Source: Escherichia phage BYEP01. From it: a stretch of DNA of 64,000 nucleotides. This document shows, piece by piece, positions 7,962 to 63,759 of the stretch. Under the pieces are notes generated by a model that searched no databases, had not been told where the DNA came from, and saw only the letters and a program-made list of their open reading frames with translations. Location: the sequence record OR757453.1; one strand, 5' to 3'. How positions within the stretch are numbered: the stretch's first letter is position 1; each line of letters opens with the position of its first letter. The translations under genes were made by a program, and so were the position numbers.

Positions 7962-7996
7962 GTTTACAACAGGCTATGGTAGTGATACTATAGCCT
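7962..7996 (+). promoter_or_regulatory. early-promoter-like element GTTTAC...TACTAT with 7-bp inverted repeat (AGGCTAT/ATAGCCT) around the -10 region
   Basis: GTTTAC 7962-7967; inverted repeat 7971-7977 / 7990-7996. Confidence 0.4.
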
Positions 7997-8016
7997 TATC
8001 AACTAAGGAGAATAAA

Positions 8017-8259
8017 ATGAGATTACAACGTCAGAGCATTAAAGATTCAGAAGTTAGAGGTAAATGGTATTTTAATATCATCGGTAAAGATTCTGAACTT
8101 GTTGAAAAAGCTGAACATCTTTTACGTGGTATGGGATGGGAAGATGAATGTGATGGATGCCCTCTTTATGAGGATGGAGAAAGCGCAGGATTCTGGATTT
8201 ACCATTCTGACGTTGAACAGTTTAAAGCTGATTGGAAAATTGTGAAAAGGTCTGTTTAA
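8017..8259 (+). CDS. hypothetical protein (80 aa; between 32 and frd)
   Basis: Track ORF 7960..8259 starts at TTG inside the promoter; AAGGAG RBS then ATG 8017 (MRLQRQSIKDSEVRGKWYFN...). Confidence 0.65.
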   Translation: MRLQRQSIKDSEVRGKWYFNIIGKDSELVEKAEHLLRGMGWEDECDGCPLYEDGESAGFWIYHSDVEQFKADWKIVKRSV

Positions 8260-15182: not shown

Positions 15183-15685
15183 GTACCTTTAACTTCCATA
15201 AGAACATGGAAATCATGGAAGGTAATGCCAAGATTATGAAGTTCATTGCACGTGATGAGCAGCTTCACCTTAAAGGCACCCAATATATTATTCGTCAACT
15301 TCAATCCGGTACTGATGGCGATGAATGGGTTAAAATTGCTCAAGAGTGTGAACAAGAAGCAGTTGATATTTTCATGGAAGTTAACCGCCAAGAAAAAGAC
15401 TGGGCAGTTCATTTATTTAAAGATGGCGATGTTCCTGGATTAAATACAAATAGCATGTGGAGCTTTATTGATTACTTAACTGTATCTCGTATGAAACAGT
15501 GCGGTCTTCCATGCCCAATTACCGATGCTCCGGTTAAACATCCGTATCCTTGGATTCGTGAATACCTTAATTCTGATAATGTTCAATCCGCGCCACAAGA
15601 AGTAGAACTGTCATCTTACCTTGTTGCACAGATTGATAATGATGTTGATGATAAAGTTATGATGAGTTTTAAAAAATACTTTTAA
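15183..15685 (+). CDS. nrdB: ribonucleotide reductase small subunit NrdB, exon 2
   Basis: ...TFNFHKNMEIMEGNAKIMKFIARDEQLHLKGTQYII...SAPQEVELSSYLVAQIDNDVDDKVMMSFKKYF; RNR beta C-terminal half. Confidence 0.9.
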
Positions 15686-15690
15686 GGAGT

Positions 15691-15712
15691 GGGCCGCAAG
15701 GCCCATTTTATT
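15691..15712 (+). terminator. hairpin GGGCC-gcaa-GGCCC followed by ATTTTATT; terminator after nrdB, and/or structure placing the denA SD near its ATG
   Basis: Inverted repeat and U-rich tail read in sequence; lies between AAGGAG (15684-15689) and denA ATG (15713). Confidence 0.5.
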
Positions 15713-17300
<1,588 letters not shown>

Positions 17301-17303
17301 GCT

Positions 17304-17358
17304 GTTTACAAGTCCCTCATGTTGTGTTACAGTAGTCTTACTGACATAACATGAGGAC
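17304..17358 (+). promoter_or_regulatory. about 55-bp promoter-like plus hairpin element upstream of alc (copy 1 of 2)
   Basis: GTTTAC 17304-17309; arms GTCCCTCATGTT (17312-17323) / AACATGAGGAC (17348-17358); right arm contains the alc SD GAGGA; near-identical copy at 30896-30950. Confidence 0.5.
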
Positions 17359-17364
17359 TTTATG

Positions 17365-17868
17365 ATGGATTTACAGCTTATTACTACTGAAATGGTCGTT
17401 GAAGCATACGGTGATACTACAGATGGGATTTTTGTATTTAAAGGAAATCGTCGAGTTGGATATATCACCGATCTTAAGAAAGATTTAGCTAAGCAAGTCA
17501 AGCGGAAAACGACCATTAAAGAATATCGAAATCGTCGTCTTGAGCAAGCCCGTGATATGCTTCCTGATGCAGTTGAGGAGATGAAAGTCTTTTTAGAAAA
17601 TCAGCTTGCGAAATATGATTGTGATGTGTTCATTAATCAGACTCAACCTAATGTTCATATCAATAATTGTAAATGCTACATCATCGTTAATCCTTTGACG
17701 GGAAAACATCGTCTTGGAATCAGTAATCCAAATCGTAGCGCATCGGATATGGCAGAAGATGTTGAGGCATGCTTTAAAATTTCTAAATCTCCTGCTGAAC
17801 ATCATATTTTAATTAACGGTCTTTCTCAAGACGATATTATAGAGGTTATTAAAACTTTATGCAATTAA
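17365..17868 (+). CDS. alc: Alc (host transcription unfolding/termination protein, 167 aa)
   Basis: MDLQLITTEMVVEAYGDTTDGIFVFKGNRRVGYITDLKKDLAKQ... recognised as T4 Alc; second ATG chosen for SD spacing. Confidence 0.9.
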   Translation: MDLQLITTEMVVEAYGDTTDGIFVFKGNRRVGYITDLKKDLAKQVKRKTTIKEYRNRRLEQARDMLPDAVEEMKVFLENQLAKYDCDVFINQTQPNVHINNCKCYIIVNPLTGKHRLGISNPNRSASDMAEDVEACFKISKSPAEHHILINGLSQDDIIEVIKTLCN

Positions 17869-20618: not shown

Positions 20619-20657
20619 GTTTACTTTATGGTAGAGTTGTGATATTATAGCTCTACC
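20619..20657 (+). promoter_or_regulatory. early-promoter-like element GTTTAC...TATTAT with 7-bp inverted repeat (GGTAGAG/CTCTACC) around the -10 region
   Basis: GTTTAC 20619-20624; inverted repeat 20630-20636 / 20651-20657. Confidence 0.45.
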
Positions 20658-20678
20658 AAAACAAATGAGGAAAACAAA

Positions 20679-23635: not shown

Positions 23636-23686
23636 GTTTACAGTATGGTTCCTTTGTGATAGTATTATCTTACACAAACAAAGGAG
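23636..23686 (+). promoter_or_regulatory. early-promoter-like element GTTTAC...TATTAT with imperfect inverted repeat whose right arm covers the SD AAGGAG
   Basis: GTTTAC 23636-23641; TCCTTTG (23650-23656) pairs with CAAAGGA (23679-23685). Confidence 0.4.
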
Positions 23687-23692
23687 AATAAA

Positions 23693-24025
23693 ATGAAAAC
23701 GATTAATCTGAACGCCACAGTTAAAACTAAATGCTTCAATGGTAAATATGATGAAACTATGTGGTTCTTAATGGCAGTTGAAGGTGATATTATTGAAGTA
23801 GAAACAACAGAAGGTATGGGAACAGATTTCACCTTTACAATTCAAGTTCATAATTTCTTTACTGGTTGGATTTATGAATTGAATACAGTAATCGTTGGAA
23901 AAATTGAACAAAATGAATTAGGCGAATGGTATTATGTTACAGCTCGCCAACGTGCCGAACGCTTAATTAAGAAGATGAAAAAAGTTGGTAAACTTGACAT
24001 GCAGCATTGGAAAGTAGTAAAATAA
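23693..24025 (+). CDS. hypothetical protein (110 aa; 30.8-position)
   Basis: AAGGAG RBS; MKTINLNATVKTKCFNGKYDETMWFLMAVEGD... Confidence 0.6.
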   Translation: MKTINLNATVKTKCFNGKYDETMWFLMAVEGDIIEVETTEGMGTDFTFTIQVHNFFTGWIYELNTVIVGKIEQNELGEWYYVTARQRAERLIKKMKKVGKLDMQHWKVVK

Positions 24026-24027
24026 TT

Positions 24028-24067
24028 GTTTACTTTGGTACAGGATATGATATTATATACCTGTACC
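24028..24067 (+). promoter_or_regulatory. early-promoter-like element GTTTAC...TATTAT with perfect 8-bp inverted repeat (GGTACAGG/CCTGTACC) around the -10 region
   Basis: GTTTAC 24028-24033; inverted repeat 24037-24044 / 24060-24067; loop contains TATTAT. Confidence 0.45.
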
Positions 24068-24092
24068 GTAATTAAACATCTTGGAGAATAAA

Positions 24093-25187: not shown

Positions 25188-25638
25188 GTTAGAGATTAGA
25201 AGCAATTTTAGGTGGCCATCATGTGCATTAAGTAATTTCGCCCAATGGCCTTTCGTTATGGATGGTATTCAATTTGGAGGTCTTGAAGGATTCCTCCAAG
25301 GATGCAAGGTGAAAAACGTTGAACAACAACGTCGTATATTTGGGTTATCTGGGCTTGCCGCTCAACAAGCTGGAAGGTCTTATGCTAGAGCTCAGGACCG
25401 TGGGACCCTCTTCTGGCTTGGAGTTCCGTTTTCAAGATACTCCCCGGCGTGGAAAGAATTATACACAAATGCATATTTTGAAGCAGCGTTCCAAAACAAG
25501 GGTTTTCGCGATGCATTACAAGCCTCGAAAGGAAAAGTTTTGAAGCACAGCATGGCTAGTGGTCTAACAAAAGATGATACAATACTAACCGAAGCTGAAT
25601 TTATTGATGTGTTAAACCTATTAAGAGACTCTCTATGA
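25180..25638 (+). CDS. NADAR/YbiA-like (DUF1768) protein (152 aa; 30.3-position)
   Basis: Track ORF 25174 starts at TTG; ATG 25180; ...ALSNFAQWPFVMDGIQFGGLEGFLQGCK... resembles NADAR domain (recall). Confidence 0.55.
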   Translation: MSELEIRSNFRWPSCALSNFAQWPFVMDGIQFGGLEGFLQGCKVKNVEQQRRIFGLSGLAAQQAGRSYARAQDRGTLFWLGVPFSRYSPAWKELYTNAYFEAAFQNKGFRDALQASKGKVLKHSMASGLTKDDTILTEAEFIDVLNLLRDSL

Positions 25639-26522
25639 AGCCTACTATTTTAACTGATATTGATGGAGTATGTTTAAGCTGGCAATCAGGCCTTCCTTAT
25701 TTTGCTCAGAAATATAATCTTCCGTTAGAACATATTTTAAAAATGATCCAAGATGAGAAATTTATTTCTCCAGGTAAACTCTTTAATTGTGATGAAGAAC
25801 TTGGCGTCAAGTTAATTGAAAAATACAATCGTTCAGATTTTATTCGTTACTTGTCTCCGTATAAAGATGCCCTGTGTGTAATTAACAAATTAAAAGAAGA
25901 TTATAATTTTGTAGCTGTTACAGCATTGGGTGATTCTATTGACGCTCTGTTGAATCGTCAATTTAATTTGAATGCTCTTTTTCCTGGTGCCTTCTCAGAA
26001 GTAATGATGTGTGGCCATGATTCTTCAAAAGAAGAGTTGTTTAAAAAGGCAAAAGAGAAATATAACGTAATTTGTTATATTGACGATCTCGCTCACCACT
26101 GTGACCACGCGAGTGAAATATTAAATGTTCCGGTTTATTGGATGGCTCGAGGAGAGCGTGACAATATTCCAAAAACTGCGCAGCGAGTTTATACATGGAA
26201 TGATGTAGAAAATAAGCTTTTTTCACCAAAGGAAAATAAAGAAAGTTTTGATAGTGAAAAAGCTATAAAAGATGTAATTGAGAAGATGGTTAAAAACGAT
26301 TCTTTTCGTTGGAACACTACCTGGAGAACTCCTGGATTTAATCCGTATAATCCATATTATACACATCCATATAATCCATATTATACACATCCATATAATC
26401 CATATTATACACACCCGTATCATATGAATCCATTCCATACGTGGAGTTATACCAAGCCTGGCGATGCAGGGTATTTTAATAGATTTACTAGTGGTGATAA
26501 TATTTTCCAAGGAGCATTCTAA
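25635..26522 (+). CDS. HAD-like phosphatase/nucleotidase-family protein with C-terminal NPYYTHPY repeats (295 aa; 30.2-position)
   Basis: N-terminal ILTDIDGV motif; C-terminal ...GFNPYNPYYTHPYNPYYTHPYNPYYTHPYHMNPF... Confidence 0.55.
   Translation: MKPTILTDIDGVCLSWQSGLPYFAQKYNLPLEHILKMIQDEKFISPGKLFNCDEELGVKLIEKYNRSDFIRYLSPYKDALCVINKLKEDYNFVAVTALGDSIDALLNRQFNLNALFPGAFSEVMMCGHDSSKEELFKKAKEKYNVICYIDDLAHHCDHASEILNVPVYWMARGERDNIPKTAQRVYTWNDVENKLFSPKENKESFDSEKAIKDVIEKMVKNDSFRWNTTWRTPGFNPYNPYYTHPYNPYYTHPYNPYYTHPYHMNPFHTWSYTKPGDAGYFNRFTSGDNIFQGAF
26344..26415 (+). repeat. 24-bp perfect tandem repeat x3 (CCATATAATCCATATTATACACAT) inside the 30.2-position CDS
   Basis: Three head-to-tail copies read directly; in-frame. 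Confidence 0.85.
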
Positions 26523-28436: not shown

Positions 28437-28458
28437 AGGCCTTCGGGCCTTTAATTTT
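28435..28458 (+). terminator. rho-independent terminator (AAAGGCC-ttcg-GGCCTTT then AATTTTAT)
   Basis: 7-bp stem with UUCG loop and U-rich tail. Confidence 0.7.
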
Positions 28459-28465
28459 ATAAATA
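28458..28465 (+). promoter_or_regulatory. T4-type late promoter TATAAATA upstream of alt
   Basis: Exact TATAAATA 24 nt upstream of alt ATG. Confidence 0.6.
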
Positions 28466-28488
28466 GAATAAACACTAGAGAGGATATG

Positions 28489-30537
28489 ATGGAACTAATT
28501 ACAGAATTATTTGACGAAGATACTACTCTTCCGATTACAAACTTAAATCCAAAGAAGAAAATACCACAAATTTTTTCAGTTCATGTTGATGACGCAATTG
28601 AACAACCAGGCTTTCGTTTATGTACCTATACATCTGGAGGTGATACTAATCGTGATTTAAAGATGGGCGATAAAATGATGCACATTGTTCCTTTTACATT
28701 AACTGCTAAAGGTTCAATTGCTAAATTGAAAGGTCTTGGTCCAAGCCCAATTAATTATATCAATTCAGTTTTTACTGTTGCAATGCAAACAATGCGTCAG
28801 TATAAAATTGATGCCTGCATGCTTCGTATTCTTAAGTCTAAAACCGCTGGTCAAGCTCGACAAATTCAAGTTATTGCTGATAGACTTATCCGTAGTCGTT
28901 CAGGTGGCAGATACGTCCTTCTTAAGGAACTCTGGGATTATGATAAAAAGTATGCATATATTCTTATACATCGCAAAAATGTATCACTAGAAGACATTCC
29001 AGGAGTTCCGGAAATTAGTACCGAGCTCTTTACTAAAGTTGAATCGAAGGTCGGTGATGTTTATATCAATAAAGATACTGGAGCTCAAGTAACTAAAAAT
29101 GAGGCAATTGCAGCATCTATTGCGCAAGAAAACGATAAACGTTCTGACCAAGCTGTAATCGTTAAAGTTAAAATTTCCCGTAGAGCAATTGCACAAAGTC
29201 AGTCATTGGAATCTTCTAGATTTGAAACACCGATGTTTCAAAAATTTGAGGCTTCAGCGGCAGAATTAAATAAACCAGCGGACGCGCCTTTAATTTCTGA
29301 TTCTAATGAATTAACGGTAATTTCTACTTCAGGATTTGCACTAGAGAATGCTCTTAATAGTGTTACAGCTGGGATGGCATTCAGAGAAGCTTCTATAATT
29401 CCTGAAGATAAAGAATCTGATGTTAATGCAGAAATAAAAAATAAAGCTTTAGAAAGATTACGAAAAGAATCTATTACTTCAATAAAAACTTTAGAAACTA
29501 TTGCTTCTATCGTCGATGATACTTTAGAAAAATATAAAGGTGCTTGGTTTGAAAGAAATATTAACAGACATTCGCATTTAAACCAAGATGCTGCAAATGA
29601 GTTAGTACAAAATTCTTGGAATGCAATAAAAACAAAGATTATTCGAAGAGAATTACGTGGATATGCTCTTACCGCTGGATGGTCATTACATCCTATAGTC
29701 GAAAATAAAGATTCATCTAAATACACACCAGCGCAAAAACGCGGAATTCGTGAATATGTAGGTTCAGGATATGTAGACATAAATAATGCTCTTTTGGGAT
29801 TATATAATCCAGATGAGCGTACAAGTATTTTAACAGCACCTGAAATAGAACAAGCCATTGATAATTTAGATTCAGCCTTTAAAAATGGTGAACGATTACC
29901 AAAAGGTATTACTTTGTATCGTTCACAACGAATGTTACCTTCAATATATGAAGCAATGGTAAAAAATCGAGTTTTTTATTTTAGAAACTTTGTGTCAACA
30001 TCATTATATCCAAATATTTTTGGTACTTGGATGACTGATTCATCTATAGGTGTTTTACCAGACGAAAAGCGTCTAAGTGTTTCTATTGATAAAACTGATG
30101 AAGGGCTTGTTAATTCTAGCGATAATTTAGTCGGAATTGGATGGGTTATTACTGGGGCTGATAAGGTCAATGTTGTTTTACCCGGTGGAAGTTTAGCGCC
30201 TTCAAATGAAATGGAAGTCATTTTGCCACGTGGATTAATGGTCAAAGTTAATAAAATAACCGATGCATCTTACAACGATGGAACAGTTAGAACTAACAAC
30301 AAGCTTATTCAAGCTGAAGTTATGACTACAGAAGAACTCACCGAATCGGTAATTTATGACGGTGACCGTTTAATGGAAACTGGTGAATTGGTTACAATGA
30401 CAGGTGATATAGAAGATAGAGTTGACTTTGCATCATTTGTTTCATCAAATGTTAAACAGAAAGTAGAATCATCTCTTGGAATTATTGCGTCTTGCATAGA
30501 TATTGCAAACATGCCTTACAAGTTCGTTCAAGGATAA
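28489..30537 (+). CDS. alt: Alt ADP-ribosyltransferase (682 aa)
   Basis: MELITELFDEDTTLPITNLNPKKKIPQIFSVHVDDAIEQPGFRLCTYTSGGDTNRDLKMGDKMMHIVPF... recognised as T4 Alt. Confidence 0.95.
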   Translation: MELITELFDEDTTLPITNLNPKKKIPQIFSVHVDDAIEQPGFRLCTYTSGGDTNRDLKMGDKMMHIVPFTLTAKGSIAKLKGLGPSPINYINSVFTVAMQTMRQYKIDACMLRILKSKTAGQARQIQVIADRLIRSRSGGRYVLLKELWDYDKKYAYILIHRKNVSLEDIPGVPEISTELFTKVESKVGDVYINKDTGAQVTKNEAIAASIAQENDKRSDQAVIVKVKISRRAIAQSQSLESSRFETPMFQKFEASAAELNKPADAPLISDSNELTVISTSGFALENALNSVTAGMAFREASIIPEDKESDVNAEIKNKALERLRKESITSIKTLETIASIVDDTLEKYKGAWFERNINRHSHLNQDAANELVQNSWNAIKTKIIRRELRGYALTAGWSLHPIVENKDSSKYTPAQKRGIREYVGSGYVDINNALLGLYNPDERTSILTAPEIEQAIDNLDSAFKNGERLPKGITLYRSQRMLPSIYEAMVKNRVFYFRNFVSTSLYPNIFGTWMTDSSIGVLPDEKRLSVSIDKTDEGLVNSSDNLVGIGWVITGADKVNVVLPGGSLAPSNEMEVILPRGLMVKVNKITDASYNDGTVRTNNKLIQAEVMTTEELTESVIYDGDRLMETGELVTMTGDIEDRVDFASFVSSNVKQKVESSLGIIASCIDIANMPYKFVQG

Positions 30538-30540
30538 ATC

Positions 30541-30926
30541 ATGGAACTTATTACATAATTATTTGACGGCGCTTCGGCGCCGGTTGTTAACTTAAATCCT
30601 AAGCATAAAATACCACAAATTTTTGCTATTCAAGCCGGCGAAGAAAGCGTGCTTCCTGGATTTAGATTTTGTACATACACCTCTGGCGGTGATACAGATA
30701 AAACGTTAAACCAGGCGACAAAATGATGCATATCGTAATGATAGGTGTTAATGAGAAACTATCATTAGTTAAGCTTAAAAACTTGGGTGGAAATCCAATT
30801 GGTGTCATTAATGCTGTTTTTGATACTGCTCTTCAAACAATGAAACAGTATAAAATCGACGCATGCCTATTACGCGTACTAAAAAGTTCAAAATGTAGTT
30901 TACAAGTCCCTCGTGTTGTGTTATAG
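30541..30926 (+). pseudogene. decayed alt paralogue (N-terminal about 125 codons; premature TAA at codon 6 and a frameshift)
   Basis: MELIT-stop-LFDGASAPVVNLNPKHKIPQIFAIQAGEESVLPGFRFCTYTSGGDTDKTLNQATK then frameshift then MMHIVMIGVNEKLSLVKLKNLGGNPIGVINAVFDTALQTMKQYKIDACLLRVLKS; aligns to Alt residues about 1-125; contains GC hairpin GGCGC-ttcg-GCGCC. Confidence 0.75.
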
Positions 30927-30950
30927 TAGTCTTACTGACATAACATGAGG
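30896..30950 (+). promoter_or_regulatory. about 55-bp promoter-like plus hairpin element (copy 2 of 2; partner at 17304-17358)
   Basis: GTTTACAAGTCCCTCGTGTTGTGTTATAGTAGTCTTACTGACATAACATGAGGA; 52/54 identical to copy 1; right arm contains SD of the downstream ORF. Confidence 0.5.
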
Positions 30951-30958
30951 AACACAAA

Positions 30959-31249
30959 ATGAAATCTTCTTTACGCTTTTTAGGTCAAGAACTTGTAGTT
31001 GAAGGCGTTATTCCTGCTGATAATGCTTTTAATGAAGCAGTTTATGATGAATTTATCAAAATTTTCGGAACAGATAAAAAGTTTGGAATTTTTCCTTCTG
31101 AAAATTTTTCAAAGCCAGAACAGACTGAAAGTATTTTTCAGGGTGTAGTAACAGGTAAATTTGAGTCAGAAGCTCCGGTAAAAATTGAAGTTTATATTGA
31201 AGACAGTTTAGTTGCTTCAGTTGCTGCTTTCATTTCATTCCGTAAATAA
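30959..31249 (+). CDS. hypothetical protein (96 aa; downstream of alt)
   Basis: TGAGGA RBS then ATG; MKSSLRFLGQELVVEGVIPADNAFNEAVYDEF... Confidence 0.6.
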   Translation: MKSSLRFLGQELVVEGVIPADNAFNEAVYDEFIKIFGTDKKFGIFPSENFSKPEQTESIFQGVVTGKFESEAPVKIEVYIEDSLVASVAAFISFRK

Positions 31250-31255
31250 AAATAT

Positions 31256-31273
31256 GGGGACCGAAAGGTCCCC
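31256..31273. terminator. bidirectional terminator hairpin (GGGGACC-gaaa-GGTCCCC) between convergent genes
   Basis: Perfect 7-bp stem with GAAA loop; U-rich flanks on both strands. Confidence 0.7.
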
Positions 31274-31321
31274 GTTGTTATATTGCTCCTAATATTTTAC
31301 TCTGCGAATTGACAATCCCTG

Positions 31322-32245
31322 TCATAGTATACTAATATTTGAAATGCTTCCTGAGGTTCCTCCTAGTCTACTAAGTCGTGAAAGCGAATTAGATAGTCCA
31401 GTAACACCTCCACTATTTCCGAGAACGCTTTGAATACCATTTATAGCAGCAGATTCAAGCCATTCAAGCGCAGCTTGCCTATCAACTGCTCCAGCCTGCA
31501 TCACTCTGTACGCAAAAGTAACATCAAATGTAGTTATTTGGTTATCTCCATCATATGATAGCTCAGGAGCGCTCACTGATATTGGAATGCATCCGGTGAA
31601 CATCACCGCAGTATGAGGCAATCCATTGCGAGAATGAAGATTAACCTGAATATCTGCCTCGACATCTTGTGGCAAAGCACGTAATCCAGTTACTGGGTCT
31701 TGAACGGAGTTAACCCAGTCTTGCATTGCACGATAGTTACAAGCTTCTGAATCCATTCTAAATGAAATAACCAAAGGGTCTAATTCTCTCCCAGTTATAC
31801 GAATATTAGGAGAATTATAGTTCCAGTCAGTTTCATAGGATAATCTATTCTCTGGCATTTTTACAGAATATATCATCAATCCAGATGAGTTATATGCCAT
31901 GTTAAAGAAGTCAATTAAATATGTACCAACCGTAAATGAGCCTAATAAACTTTGAACTGTGCGTTGACTCATGGCACCAATAAGATATTTACTGACTCCT
32001 GATTTTCTTATTAGTTTTTGTGTGCCAGCTGTAATTAGCGTGGTAATTCCCTGATTAATATCACCTTGAGTTAATCCTAACCAATTTGAATTTAGGCCCA
32101 AGTTATTATAAGAAAAGTTGCTAATTGAACTTATCAACGAAGAGCTTTTAGTTGATGGAGTTGTCGCAAAAACGCAGCTAAACATATTATTACGTTGGAA
32201 ATCTGCGTTTATTGCTTGATTATTAAATTCCTCTAAAGAATACAT
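31322..32245 (-). CDS. 54: baseplate tail tube initiator gp54
   Basis: MYSLEEFNNQAINADFQRNNMFSCVFATTPSTKSS... recognised as T4 gp54 (307 aa here). Confidence 0.9.
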   Translation of the reverse strand: MYSLEEFNNQAINADFQRNNMFSCVFATTPSTKSSSLISSISNFSYNNLGLNSNWLGLTQGDINQGITTLITAGTQKLIRKSGVSKYLIGAMSQRTVQSLLGSFTVGTYLIDFFNMAYNSSGLMIYSVKMPENRLSYETDWNYNSPNIRITGRELDPLVISFRMDSEACNYRAMQDWVNSVQDPVTGLRALPQDVEADIQVNLHSRNGLPHTAVMFTGCIPISVSAPELSYDGDNQITTFDVTFAYRVMQAGAVDRQAALEWLESAAINGIQSVLGNSGGVTGLSNSLSRLSRLGGTSGSISNISIL

Positions 32246-49449: not shown

Positions 49450-49696
49450 TATTCATCATCCTCGTCTTCGTCAGAGTCTTTGTCTTTTTTGTCGTCTTTA
49501 TCATCGCTATCTTCGTCATCATCCTCGTCTTCATCATCCTCATCATCAGGTTCTTCACCTTCGATTAAGAAATTACGAGCGATAGCGATTTTTTCTTCTT
49601 TAATTAAATCAATCGTTCTTGCAGCCATGGCTTCAGCAAAGAATTTACGAGCGGCTACGAGGTCGTTTGATTTAATAGCTTCAATTAAACCTTCCA

Positions 49697-62179: not shown

Positions 62180-63759
62180 TCTTTTACCTTAATTATGTAG
62201 TTTAAAGAAATGTTCCATGGGCGTGTTTCATTTCCAATTAATTCAGGACGATTTAATGTGTATTTGGAATTTCGTTGTGATTCTGGGTCAATTTCATATC
62301 CGTCATTGGTGAAGTATGAACGGTTATCCCAGTCAAGTCCTTTACGTGTACCAACAAAATTTGATCTACGAGTATTACCGAATGCCCCGGCATCATCCTG
62401 CTCACCAAATCCGCCAGCGTGTTTATGATAAGACATCTGCTGTTTTTGTACTTCACCAACATATCCACCGGTACAGCCTACACCTAATCTAGGCTTACCA
62501 AATTGGTCATTACCGTTAACATTTGGATTTGTTAAGTGAGAGCCACGACCGGAGCCACGAACAAAAAGACCACGCATATCAGGTAATCCAGGATTTGATG
62601 AGCTTCCGCCGTATCTTGTTCCAATTCTAGAAGCATATAATGGACAATCTGATGCTGAAACAGTTCCGCCATGGCAGAAGCGCCAAGCATCACTAGGAAG
62701 GCTATCAGCCGCCCACATCATAATAGCTCCGACAGGAATAGTTCTATCTATTTCATTCTGCGTTACGACACGCTTACCCTGAATATAACCACCGGTCATG
62801 TTAACTGTTCCGGTAATATTTGCTCCGCCTGAAGCTATTGTGAGCGTATTATTAATGCGAAGTGTTCCATTAATCGTTTGACCACCTCTTTGATGGATAA
62901 CGTCAGCATTCCAAGCTAGTGCTGATGAAGCATCACCTCCACTCTGTGAGCCGGCGGTTGTAGTTAATTTAACTACGCCTCTCATTGACGTTGTAGAACC
63001 ACGACCATTAAGAGTTGCGCCAGTAACCGCAACAGAAGCATTATTTGAGTTAACTTCTGATTGCGTTCCTAATTTAATTACGCCTTTATATTCTTCAGTA
63101 GCAGTAGAATTCATGAACGTATAAGGAGAAATTGCATAGCCTTCTCTTAAAGTTCCTTGACGAACTTGAGCTACTGTCGCTAATTGAACAACACCTTGGG
63201 CCGATTCGGTAGCTGTGGATTCAGAAGGAGCGATTTGCGCAATTAGTTTAATAGCTAACTGCTGCGTTTTTAATGGAGTCATTGCAGTAGTATCATCTGC
63301 GCCAGCTAATGCTTGCGGTAGAGATGAAATTTTAATAACTCCATTCTTTGATTCAGTTGAAACTCGTGTTTCAAAGGCATTATTAAGGGCAACAGTAAAT
63401 TTAGCAGGAGTTATAGAAGATTCATTATTAACTCCAGCAATTGCTTCATCATTGGTTGAATATCTTGTTAATCCGTAAACAGTTTCAGTTGCGTTTGGAT
63501 AAGATAATCTTGTTGCCAACGTTGCTGGTGTAACTGCTTTGGTATTATCAGTTCCATCGATAACTTCCTGTTCAGTGGCAAGAAATAAAATTCCTTTTGT
63601 TGTTGATGATGCATCAGGAACTCCATTTACACCAGCAGGAGAAATGGCTGCTATAGCAGCCTGAACATCAGTAATCTCTGCTGGAAAATTTGTGCCAGTT
63701 GGATCAAATTTTACATAGCGAGATTCATTAGAAACGTGTTGGTATGTATTATTACTCAT
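62176..63759 (-). CDS. 12: short tail fiber protein gp12 (527 aa)
   Basis: [88 protein letters not shown]... recognised as T4 gp12. Confidence 0.96.

Follow-up and report, generated by a model that had tools for sequence, protein, structure and literature searches.

A Predicted Hairpin between an Early Promoter and the Shine-Dalgarno Region of alc and alt.-3 in T4-Like Phages: A Candidate Translational Gate

In the T4-like phage BYEP01 the genes alc and alt.-3 are preceded by two copies of a 54-nt element in which an early promoter and a stable predicted RNA hairpin occupy the same nucleotides. Considering the promoter geometry and the predicted folds, we regard it as rather probable that this element is a translational gate placed inside the early promoter, whose state would depend on the promoter from which the RNA originates. 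In each copy, a strong T4 early promoter of sigma70 type would be joined to the leader of the gene it serves, and the nucleotides from the -35/-10 spacer through the -10 could pair with the 5' UTR and its Shine-Dalgarno (SD) sequence. The transcript of this promoter would begin just beyond the loop of the hairpin, carrying the 3' arm only and leaving the ribosome-binding site free. RNAs started further upstream would contain both arms, and in them a hairpin of ~21 bp would bury the SD and lead to poor translation.

Location and Anatomy of the Element

The window analysed here, which is the whole stretch of 64,000 nt from record OR757453.1, belongs to a Tequatrovirus (T4-like) genome with its early genes on the + strand, and the surroundings of the element showed 98% identity to many coliphages, in which rnlA, alc, and spanin are annotated. 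Copy 1 of the element (GTTTACAAGTCCCTCATGTTGTGTTACAGTAGTCTTACTGACATAACATGAGGA) lies at 17304-17357, within the gap between rnlA and alc. The stop codon of the rnlA ORF (RNA ligase 1; 16140..17300, +; annotated as RNA ligase in homologous records) is located 4 nt ahead of the -35 element of copy 1. The alc ORF (inhibitor of host transcription; 17362..17868, +; identified by the ORF list and homologous records) has ATG codons at 17362 and 17365, the second of which matches the T4 annotation. Copy 2 (30898-30951, +) is located at the junction of alt.-2 and alt.-3. The final 29 nt of the alt.-2 ORF (30723..30926, +) overlap it, and the alt.-2 stop codon TAG falls within its -10 sequence TATAGT. 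The gene served by copy 2 is alt.-3 (30959..31249, +), which codes for a conserved hypothetical protein; between it and the convergent gene 54 the terminator scan detected a bidirectional terminator-like hairpin (31254..31275) at the end of the transcription unit. Further upstream, the alt ORF covers 28486-30537 (+), and a late-promoter motif, TATAAATA, was found by motif scan at 28458..28465 (+), 20 nt 5' of alt.

The copies are identical at 52/54 positions. The two differences, A17319/G30913 and C17330/T30924, are both neutral for pairing, with A-U becoming G.U in the first and C-G becoming U.G in the second. An earlier note on this DNA had described a 55-bp repeat with 52/54 identity and a second copy at 30896-30950. 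The repeat was confirmed as a 54-mer with 2 mismatches, the position of the second copy had to be corrected by 1-2 nt, and the search of the stretch for further copies gave this single recurrence. The same note had pointed to one arm substitution, A to G, as preserving the helix; this is so, and the other difference also maintains pairing. Such wobble-preserving substitutions indicate a helix at the RNA level. Zero matches to the 54-mer were obtained in 100 dinucleotide shuffles.

Both copies are present on the - strand of T4 (NC_000866), at 136283-136336 and 123040-123093, and in GenBank phages the element was found at 997 places in 499 records, that is, two copies per genome. A match of 94% identity was also present at 31824-31877 of MG010123.1, a 32-kb record named "Staphylococcus phage SAJK-IND", which is likely a T4-like sequence that was mislabelled or is chimeric. 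Other kinds of repeats were seen in the window: a tandem array of a 24-bp unit, ATCCATATAATCCATATTATACAC, with three and a half copies at 26341-26423 inside the ORF 25635-26522; families of short periodic direct repeats near both ends (1430-2412 and 63094-63306); and a run of acidic-codon-like repeats, TCATCATCCTCGTCTTCGTCA, at 49453-49548 (~49.5 kb).

The early-promoter-like GTTTAC proposed by the earlier note was borne out by the promoter scan, which called TTTACA-17-TACAGT at 17305-17333 for copy 1 and TTTACA-17-TATAGT at 30899-30927 for copy 2, in both cases with TG ahead of the -10. The -35 GTTTACA corresponds to 17304..17310 (+) in copy 1 (sequence and promoter scan) and to 30898-30904 in copy 2, where the -10 is at 30922-30927. 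Both copies have the features that define a T4 early promoter (Pe), namely, GTTTAC(A/T), a spacer of 17 +/- 1 nt, TGn, and TAnnnT, and the GenBank record of phage SA21RB annotates the site of copy 1, by similarity to T4, as an early promoter. The motif scan found no TATAAATA late promoter in either element. The -10 sequences TACAGT and TATAGT are slightly off consensus because the -10 doubles as the inner helix CAGUA/UACUG, which is disrupted by TATAAT variants.

RNA folding of both copies, which had been suggested as a check, gave stable hairpins of -24.6 kcal/mol (copy 1, z = -5.6 against shuffles) and -22.0 kcal/mol (copy 2, z = -5.9). The inverted repeat of 11-12 bp noticed earlier is real, and it is part of a longer hairpin: in copy 1 this hairpin (17311-17359) has 21 bp (5+11+5), a bulged C at 17316, and a 2-nt internal loop. 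Its 5' arm (17311..17334, +) runs through the spacer, the TGn at 17325-17327, and the -10 TACAGT at 17328-17333; the loop GUCU is at 17335..17338 (+; 30929-32 in copy 2), and the 3' arm (17339..17359, +) is the 5' UTR of alc. The SD sequence GAGGA (17353-17357, and 30947-30951 in copy 2) lies in the right arm, as the note had it, and in the predicted fold all five of its bases are paired. A T-run is absent after both stems, the sequences next to them being CTTTATGATG and ACACAAAATG, and the terminator scan was silent; the reading of the element as an intrinsic (Rho-independent) terminator was rejected for this lack of a T-run. The best scores in Rfam, 19 bits against thresholds of at least 86, were generic hairpin matches to miRNA precursor models.

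The location of the transcription start is predicted from the promoter geometry. In both copies it would be the 7th nt past the -10 and 2 nt beyond the loop, at 17340 (A, +) in copy 1 (T4 NC_000866 ~136300, -) and at ~30934 (+) in copy 2 (T4 ~123057, -), so that the 5' arm, formed by the promoter spacer and the -10, is entirely upstream of the predicted start. With a start between the arms, only read-through RNA folds. RNA from the predicted +1 carries the 3' arm alone, with a folding energy of -1.8 kcal/mol for copy 1 and -1.0 kcal/mol for copy 2. The energy needed to open the region from the SD to the AUG was 16.0 (alc) and 14.9 (alt.-3) kcal/mol in read-through RNA that begins 60-150 nt upstream, against 4.3 and 2.0 kcal/mol, respectively, in the Pe transcript, and this contrast was stable to shifts of the +1 by -3 to +2 nt. 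The structure had been thought in the earlier note to couple transcription initiation to translation; with the predicted start between the arms, a transcript of this promoter lacks the 5' arm and is unable to fold into the hairpin, which would rather discriminate against RNAs started upstream.

Variation among Tevenvirinae and across T4 Early Promoters

Alc is present throughout the Tevenvirinae, and we therefore gathered the rnlA|alc gaps from GenBank genera together with 42 IMG/VR loci located by Alc alignment. Pattern scans added 10 stretches from IMG/VR and 12 from metagenome contigs, mostly from the same few genomes, and locus searches with a single protein recovered close relatives only. 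The gap measures 57-64 nt almost everywhere, and in most lineages it holds the same design with a different stem. The design was found in Karam-, Gelderland-, Jiaoda-, Dhaka-, Kanagawa-, and Roskildevirus and in three further clusters, that is, in at least 9 divergent lineages of Tevenvirinae. The 5' and 3' arms at alc are TCTCCATTTGGTTG and CAACCAAATGGAGA in Karamvirus, TCTCCGTTT and AAACGGAGA in Gelderlandvirus, TCCTCATCAG and CTGATGAGGA in Jiaodavirus, TCTCCTCAT and ATGAGGAGA in Dhakavirus, and CCCCGTTTTGTT and AACAAAATGGGG in Kanagawavirus; two further lineages have CCTCTCGTTTTTG and CAAAAACGAGAGG, and CCTCGTTTGTT and AACAAACGAGG.

The pairing was evaluated in an alignment-free way by computing duplexes between spacers and SD regions. 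Cognate pairs reached a mean of -19.7 kcal/mol, against -10.5 kcal/mol for non-cognate pairs taken from different clusters, and when the 9 cluster representatives were permuted, 0/20000 permutations reached the observed cognate mean. A covariance model built from three genera recovered the other genera. In the alignment of 26 unique leaders to this model, 91.8% of the cells were canonical and 13/17 pairs were changed on both sides, while slid controls gave 31-50% canonical cells and 1-4 pairs; since this alignment is fitted to the structure, its pairing figures lean towards the structure. MAFFT followed by RNAalifold gave no consensus structure for the 26 alc leaders, with the 3' arms 1-2 columns out of register.

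The 5' arm is found between the -10 and the +1, and not in the spacer, in three lineages: Aeromonas phage 31, Acinetobacter phage 133, and Gaprivervirus. Even there it precedes the predicted start and pairs with the SD, and it is hard to explain this relocation by anything other than an RNA logic. The hairpin stops 1-5 nt short of the SD in Tegunavirus, in locus L084, and in Providencia phage PSTCR6, and the design is absent from the Mosigvirus-like and some other alc leaders (L041, L078, L092-94). Gapriverviruses such as Shigella phage SP18 also carry, between rnlA and alca, a gene alcb that is a diverged duplicate of the alc N-terminal part (~74% DNA identity), and the promoter of the alcb region overlaps a terminator-like G+C hairpin (SP18 locus 257-490).

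Within Tequatrovirus, the changes in the left arm are all compatible with wobble pairing (C11U, C15U, and A16G; U in place of C where the partner is G, and either A or G where it is U). One inner pair runs through the series C-G, U.G, and U-A, and element positions 41-54, which include the SD, are invariant. The combination of variants TATAAT + AATC was seen at the alc locus as well as at the alt.-3 locus, in different genomes, and this suggests that the two copies have exchanged to some degree. In Gapriver-, Dhaka-, Mosig-, Marfa-, and Karamvirus, the early promoter ahead of alt.-3 has only a small hairpin within the spacer, without SD pairing, and the flanks TTCAAAATGTAGTTTACA and ACATGAGGA are common to these leaders and the Tequatrovirus copy. 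Most likely, a patch of ~35-45 nt from the alc promoter and leader took the place of the alt.-3 promoter core in an ancestor of Tequatrovirus, bounded by the shared motifs GTTTACA and ACATGAGGA; the direction from alc to alt.-3 is proposed because the design is more widespread at alc.

Copy 2 adjoins the alt/alt.-1/alt.-2 duplication, 13.6 kb from copy 1. This partial duplication of the 5' part of alt (28486-28646 against 30538-30695, 72-90% identity) corresponds to alt.-1/alt.-2 in the T4 annotation. The idea that the element is a recombination hotspot found little support beyond the one implied past transfer of a patch from alc to alt.-3: the two direct repeats flank ~13.6 kb that include gene 30 (DNA ligase) and gene 31. 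A third copy is present in phage vB_EcoM-G28, within a 351-bp tandem duplication that is 100% identical (locus 15500-16150), covers the 3' end of rnlA, the element, and the 5' part of alc, and yields a truncated alc ORF. This duplication is either a recent event or an assembly artefact. Recombination mediated by the element was rejected as its origin, given that the duplication ends outside the element. Phage G28 has, in addition, two full-length alt paralogues.

We also scanned the early regions of T4 for units formed by a GTTTAC-type promoter, an SD, and a start codon, and 34 Pe units were obtained. In 7/34 of them (alc, alt.-3, regB, denV, motB.2, nrdC.8, and ndd.4) the duplexes between spacer and SD had energies of -18 to -22 kcal/mol, all stronger than each of 1074 non-cognate combinations (minimum -16.1 kcal/mol); the remaining units formed a continuous background. 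Besides alc and alt.-3, the SD-complementary spacers in NC_000866 belong to regB (ATG 62740), denV (65355), motB.2 (8161), nrdC.8 (53885), and ndd.4 (~166749-166764), and the covariance model derived from alc also matched regB, motB.2, and denV. A weak case of SD pairing was seen in the window at 23637-23693 (30.8).

Hairpins of a second kind, centred on the -10 and stopping short of the SD, were found at ~6 other T4 promoters (ipI, ipII, dmd, motB, mobD.2, and 30.7) and in the window at 7963-8017, 20620-20660, and 24029-24070; their left arm is in the spacer and their right arm at about -6 to +8. A small hairpin wholly inside the -35/-10 spacer is also recurrent, and it looks like a conserved spacer motif. 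It is present in the alt.-3 leaders and in some alc leaders of other genera (L041, L051-L055), with CACCACAAGGATGTGG, ACACATGGATGTGT, and GCACAAGGAAGTGC as examples, and also at T4 rIIA.1, nrdC.4, and ndd.6 (CCACAAGGAnnGTGG).

Proposed Gate and Alternative Explanations

For a gate of this kind, RNAs from upstream have to reach the hairpins. No terminator-like site was found in the rnlA|alc or the alt.-2|alt.-3 gap, with only weak intragenic matches at 16206 and 30060. In T4, middle promoters have been mapped upstream of rnlA (PnrdA, PnrdB, and PI-TevIII; PMC2988021 Table 1), and late RNA that reads through towards alt.-3 is expected to start at the motif TATAAATA before alt. Taking together the lack of terminators, the upstream middle promoters, and the late motif at alt, middle and late RNAs are expected to run into both hairpins. 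At alc the read-through would come from early and middle transcripts passing through nrdA, nrdB, denA, and rnlA, and at alt.-3 from late transcripts of the alt promoter. In the proposed mechanism, production of Alc and Alt.-3 would be essentially limited to the time when their own early promoters are active, and with the shut-off of these promoters it would end despite ongoing transcription of the genes. In the time-resolved omics of T4, alc and alt.-3 are classified as early RNA/early protein and rnlA, nrdA, and nrdB as early RNA/late protein (PMC9697503 supplement); these classes are consistent with the gate model and are no test of the gate.

Two points stand against the gate at alt.-3. Ribosomes translating alt.-2 cross the whole 5' arm of copy 2; translation of alt.-2, if it takes place, would melt the hairpin and result in coupling and not in a block. 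Moreover, the five other genera in which the early promoter of alt.-3 lacks SD pairing indicate that the gate is dispensable for alt.-3 in general.

The nearest alternative is that the element is a proper member of the promoter-early stem-loop (PeSL) cassettes of T4-like phages, in which the stem-loop would terminate or attenuate incoming transcription and offer short homology by which gene modules are shuffled between phages, the SD pairing being incidental. [quoted passage not shown] The element is likewise repeated in the genome and evidently copied from locus to locus, and ~6 other T4 early promoters have hairpins centred on the -10 that stop short of the SD. We nevertheless consider this explanation unlikely. 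A terminator is opposed by the missing T-run after either stem and by the scan, which made no call. In all five described PeSL subclasses the stem is upstream of the start, while in the present element the 5' UTR and its SD make up the 3' arm, and covariation specifically maintains the pairing of the SD in at least 9 lineages. Recombination of the copies, which are direct repeats, would delete ~13.6 kb with genes 30 and 31, and the extra copy in G28 belongs to a tandem duplication whose breakpoints are not in the element. It is also conceivable that the hairpin, which follows directly on the rnlA stop codon, acts on the upstream message, as a 3' stabiliser or processing site (e.g., for RNase III) of the rnlA and alt mRNAs or by translational coupling, and to this we assign a low probability. 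The helix of ~21 bp in Tequatrovirus approaches the length of an RNase III substrate, but the stems of other genera, with 9-17 bp, are too short for a conserved site, and a stabiliser has no need of a 3' arm that is the SD of the next gene. In favour of coupling, the alt.-2 ORF ends in the 5' arm of copy 2 and ribosomes would melt the helix; at alc, however, the helix starts 10 nt past the stop codon in Tequatrovirus and about 7-12 nt past it in other genera, and from known sizes of the ribosome footprint a terminating ribosome would open the outermost pairs at most.

The inverted repeat may alternatively be read at the level of DNA, as a cruciform or as the site of a dimeric regulator that modulates the promoter, for example in early-promoter shut-off. 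The arms are perfect Watson-Crick palindromes in several genera, the 5' arm is within the promoter spacer, and the fold energies of the sense and antisense strands are overall alike: across all 32 leaders the difference was not significant (Wilcoxon p = 0.43). In the T4 and Tequatrovirus elements, on the other hand, the G.U pairs are mismatches in DNA and the sense fold is favoured by 4-11 kcal/mol; with no significant asymmetry overall, this evidence for RNA over DNA is limited to that lineage. Against a DNA site there is also the variation of the stem among lineages and among the seven T4 promoters, by which no single protein could recognise them all. The arms are 12-24 nt apart in most lineages, a separation that, from the general energetics of cruciforms, would disfavour extrusion, and the three lineages with a relocated 5' arm have moved it out of the spacer and kept it upstream of the +1. 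We judge a palindrome acting in DNA to be very improbable. Chance, or an extended consensus of T4 early promoters with no structural function, has hardly any credibility. These promoters do have long consensus stretches in common (PMC2988021), and anti-SD-like CTCC/CCTC motifs give a background of ~-10 kcal/mol in non-cognate pairs, but this explanation is refuted by the zero shuffle matches, the fold z of -5 to -6, the 1074 non-cognate combinations that were beaten, and the 0/20000 permutations.

Relation to Known Systems and Meaning for T4-Like Phages

The promoter-of-origin gate that we prefer has known relatives. In T4, the genes e, soc, 49, and I-TevI are established cases of hairpins that hide the SD on long transcripts, and the transcript of an internal late promoter escapes them (PMC3014915). 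The likeness with the alc/alt.-3 element, as predicted here, extends to several features: the SD and/or the AUG is sequestered on the long RNA, the promoter is within or beside the DNA of the 5' strand of the hairpin, and the short RNA is translated. The promoters of e, soc, 49, and I-TevI are late ones (TATAAATA), and early and middle translation of late functions is blocked. The alc/alt.-3 element differs in that its promoter is an early one of sigma70 type and its 5' arm is the -35/-10 spacer. The expected outcome is also reversed, with translation in the immediate-early period only. By this comparison, the alc/alt.-3 element would be an early-promoter variant of the e/soc/49/I-TevI gates with opposite timing. 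The 2010 review of these systems (PMC3014915) lists no alc, alt.-3, regB, denV, or other early-promoter case, and on regB it mentions only "a typical early promoter".

The second point of comparison is the PeSL, described as repeated intergenic units of promoter, stem-loop, and SD in T4-like phages (Arbiol et al. 2010, PMC2839356; Comeau et al. 2014, PMC4122927). Five subclasses are distinguished by the position of the stem, which may be upstream of the -35, over the -35, between the boxes, over the -10, or between the -10 and the start (PMC2839356), and the stems have been interpreted as terminators or attenuators and as recombination linkers (PMC2839356, PMC4122927). The present element shares with the PeSL the upstream stop codon, the sigma70-like early promoter, the stem-loop, the SD, and the start codon, as well as its repetition and its occurrence in T4/PST-type phages. 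Unlike in the PeSL, its stem spans the predicted start, its 3' arm holds the SD, there is no T-run, and covariation keeps the pairing of the SD. PeSL motifs as a class cluster in hyperplastic regions beside indels; the two copies here are 13.6 kb from each other, with the alt duplication adjacent to copy 2. The element can also be seen, as an alternative view, as an undescribed PeSL subclass, and the hairpins centred on the -10 fit the PeSL subclass whose stem overlaps the -10. As a promoter, it does not differ from the T4 Pe ("UP/-35/TGn/-10", PMC2988021), with GTTTACA, a 17-nt spacer, TGn, TAnnnT, and an early gene directly downstream. In the literature we found no alc, alt.-3, or regB hairpin of this type, and an earlier mention is possible in older T4 work (Miller et al. 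2003; Liebig and Rüger 1989). A class of early-promoter gates would be one that is absent from the reviews of T4 post-transcriptional control and from the PeSL papers examined.

Taking into account the seven T4 promoters with SD-complementary spacers, we advance as a tentative extension that T4-like phages may possess a general translational gate depending on promoter of origin, which serves a set of immediate-early genes and has its 5' arm in the spacer of each gene's own promoter. If this is true, only RNAs begun at a gene's own promoter would yield its protein, as for instance with Alc, RegB, endonuclease V, MotB.2, and Alt.-3, and synthesis would stop once the early promoters are silenced, despite middle and late read-through.

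The proposed gate, if true, would call for caution in phage engineering, where a gene placed behind such a cassette would be expressed depending on the promoter of its RNA. It would also mean that some PeSL stem-loops are translational gates and not terminators, and it would explain a constraint on the spacers of early promoters, which are usually regarded as free sequence. Alc terminates host transcription and RegB is an mRNase. For T4, the gate would explain how potentially harmful takeover proteins such as these are confined to the first minutes of infection without a dedicated repressor.
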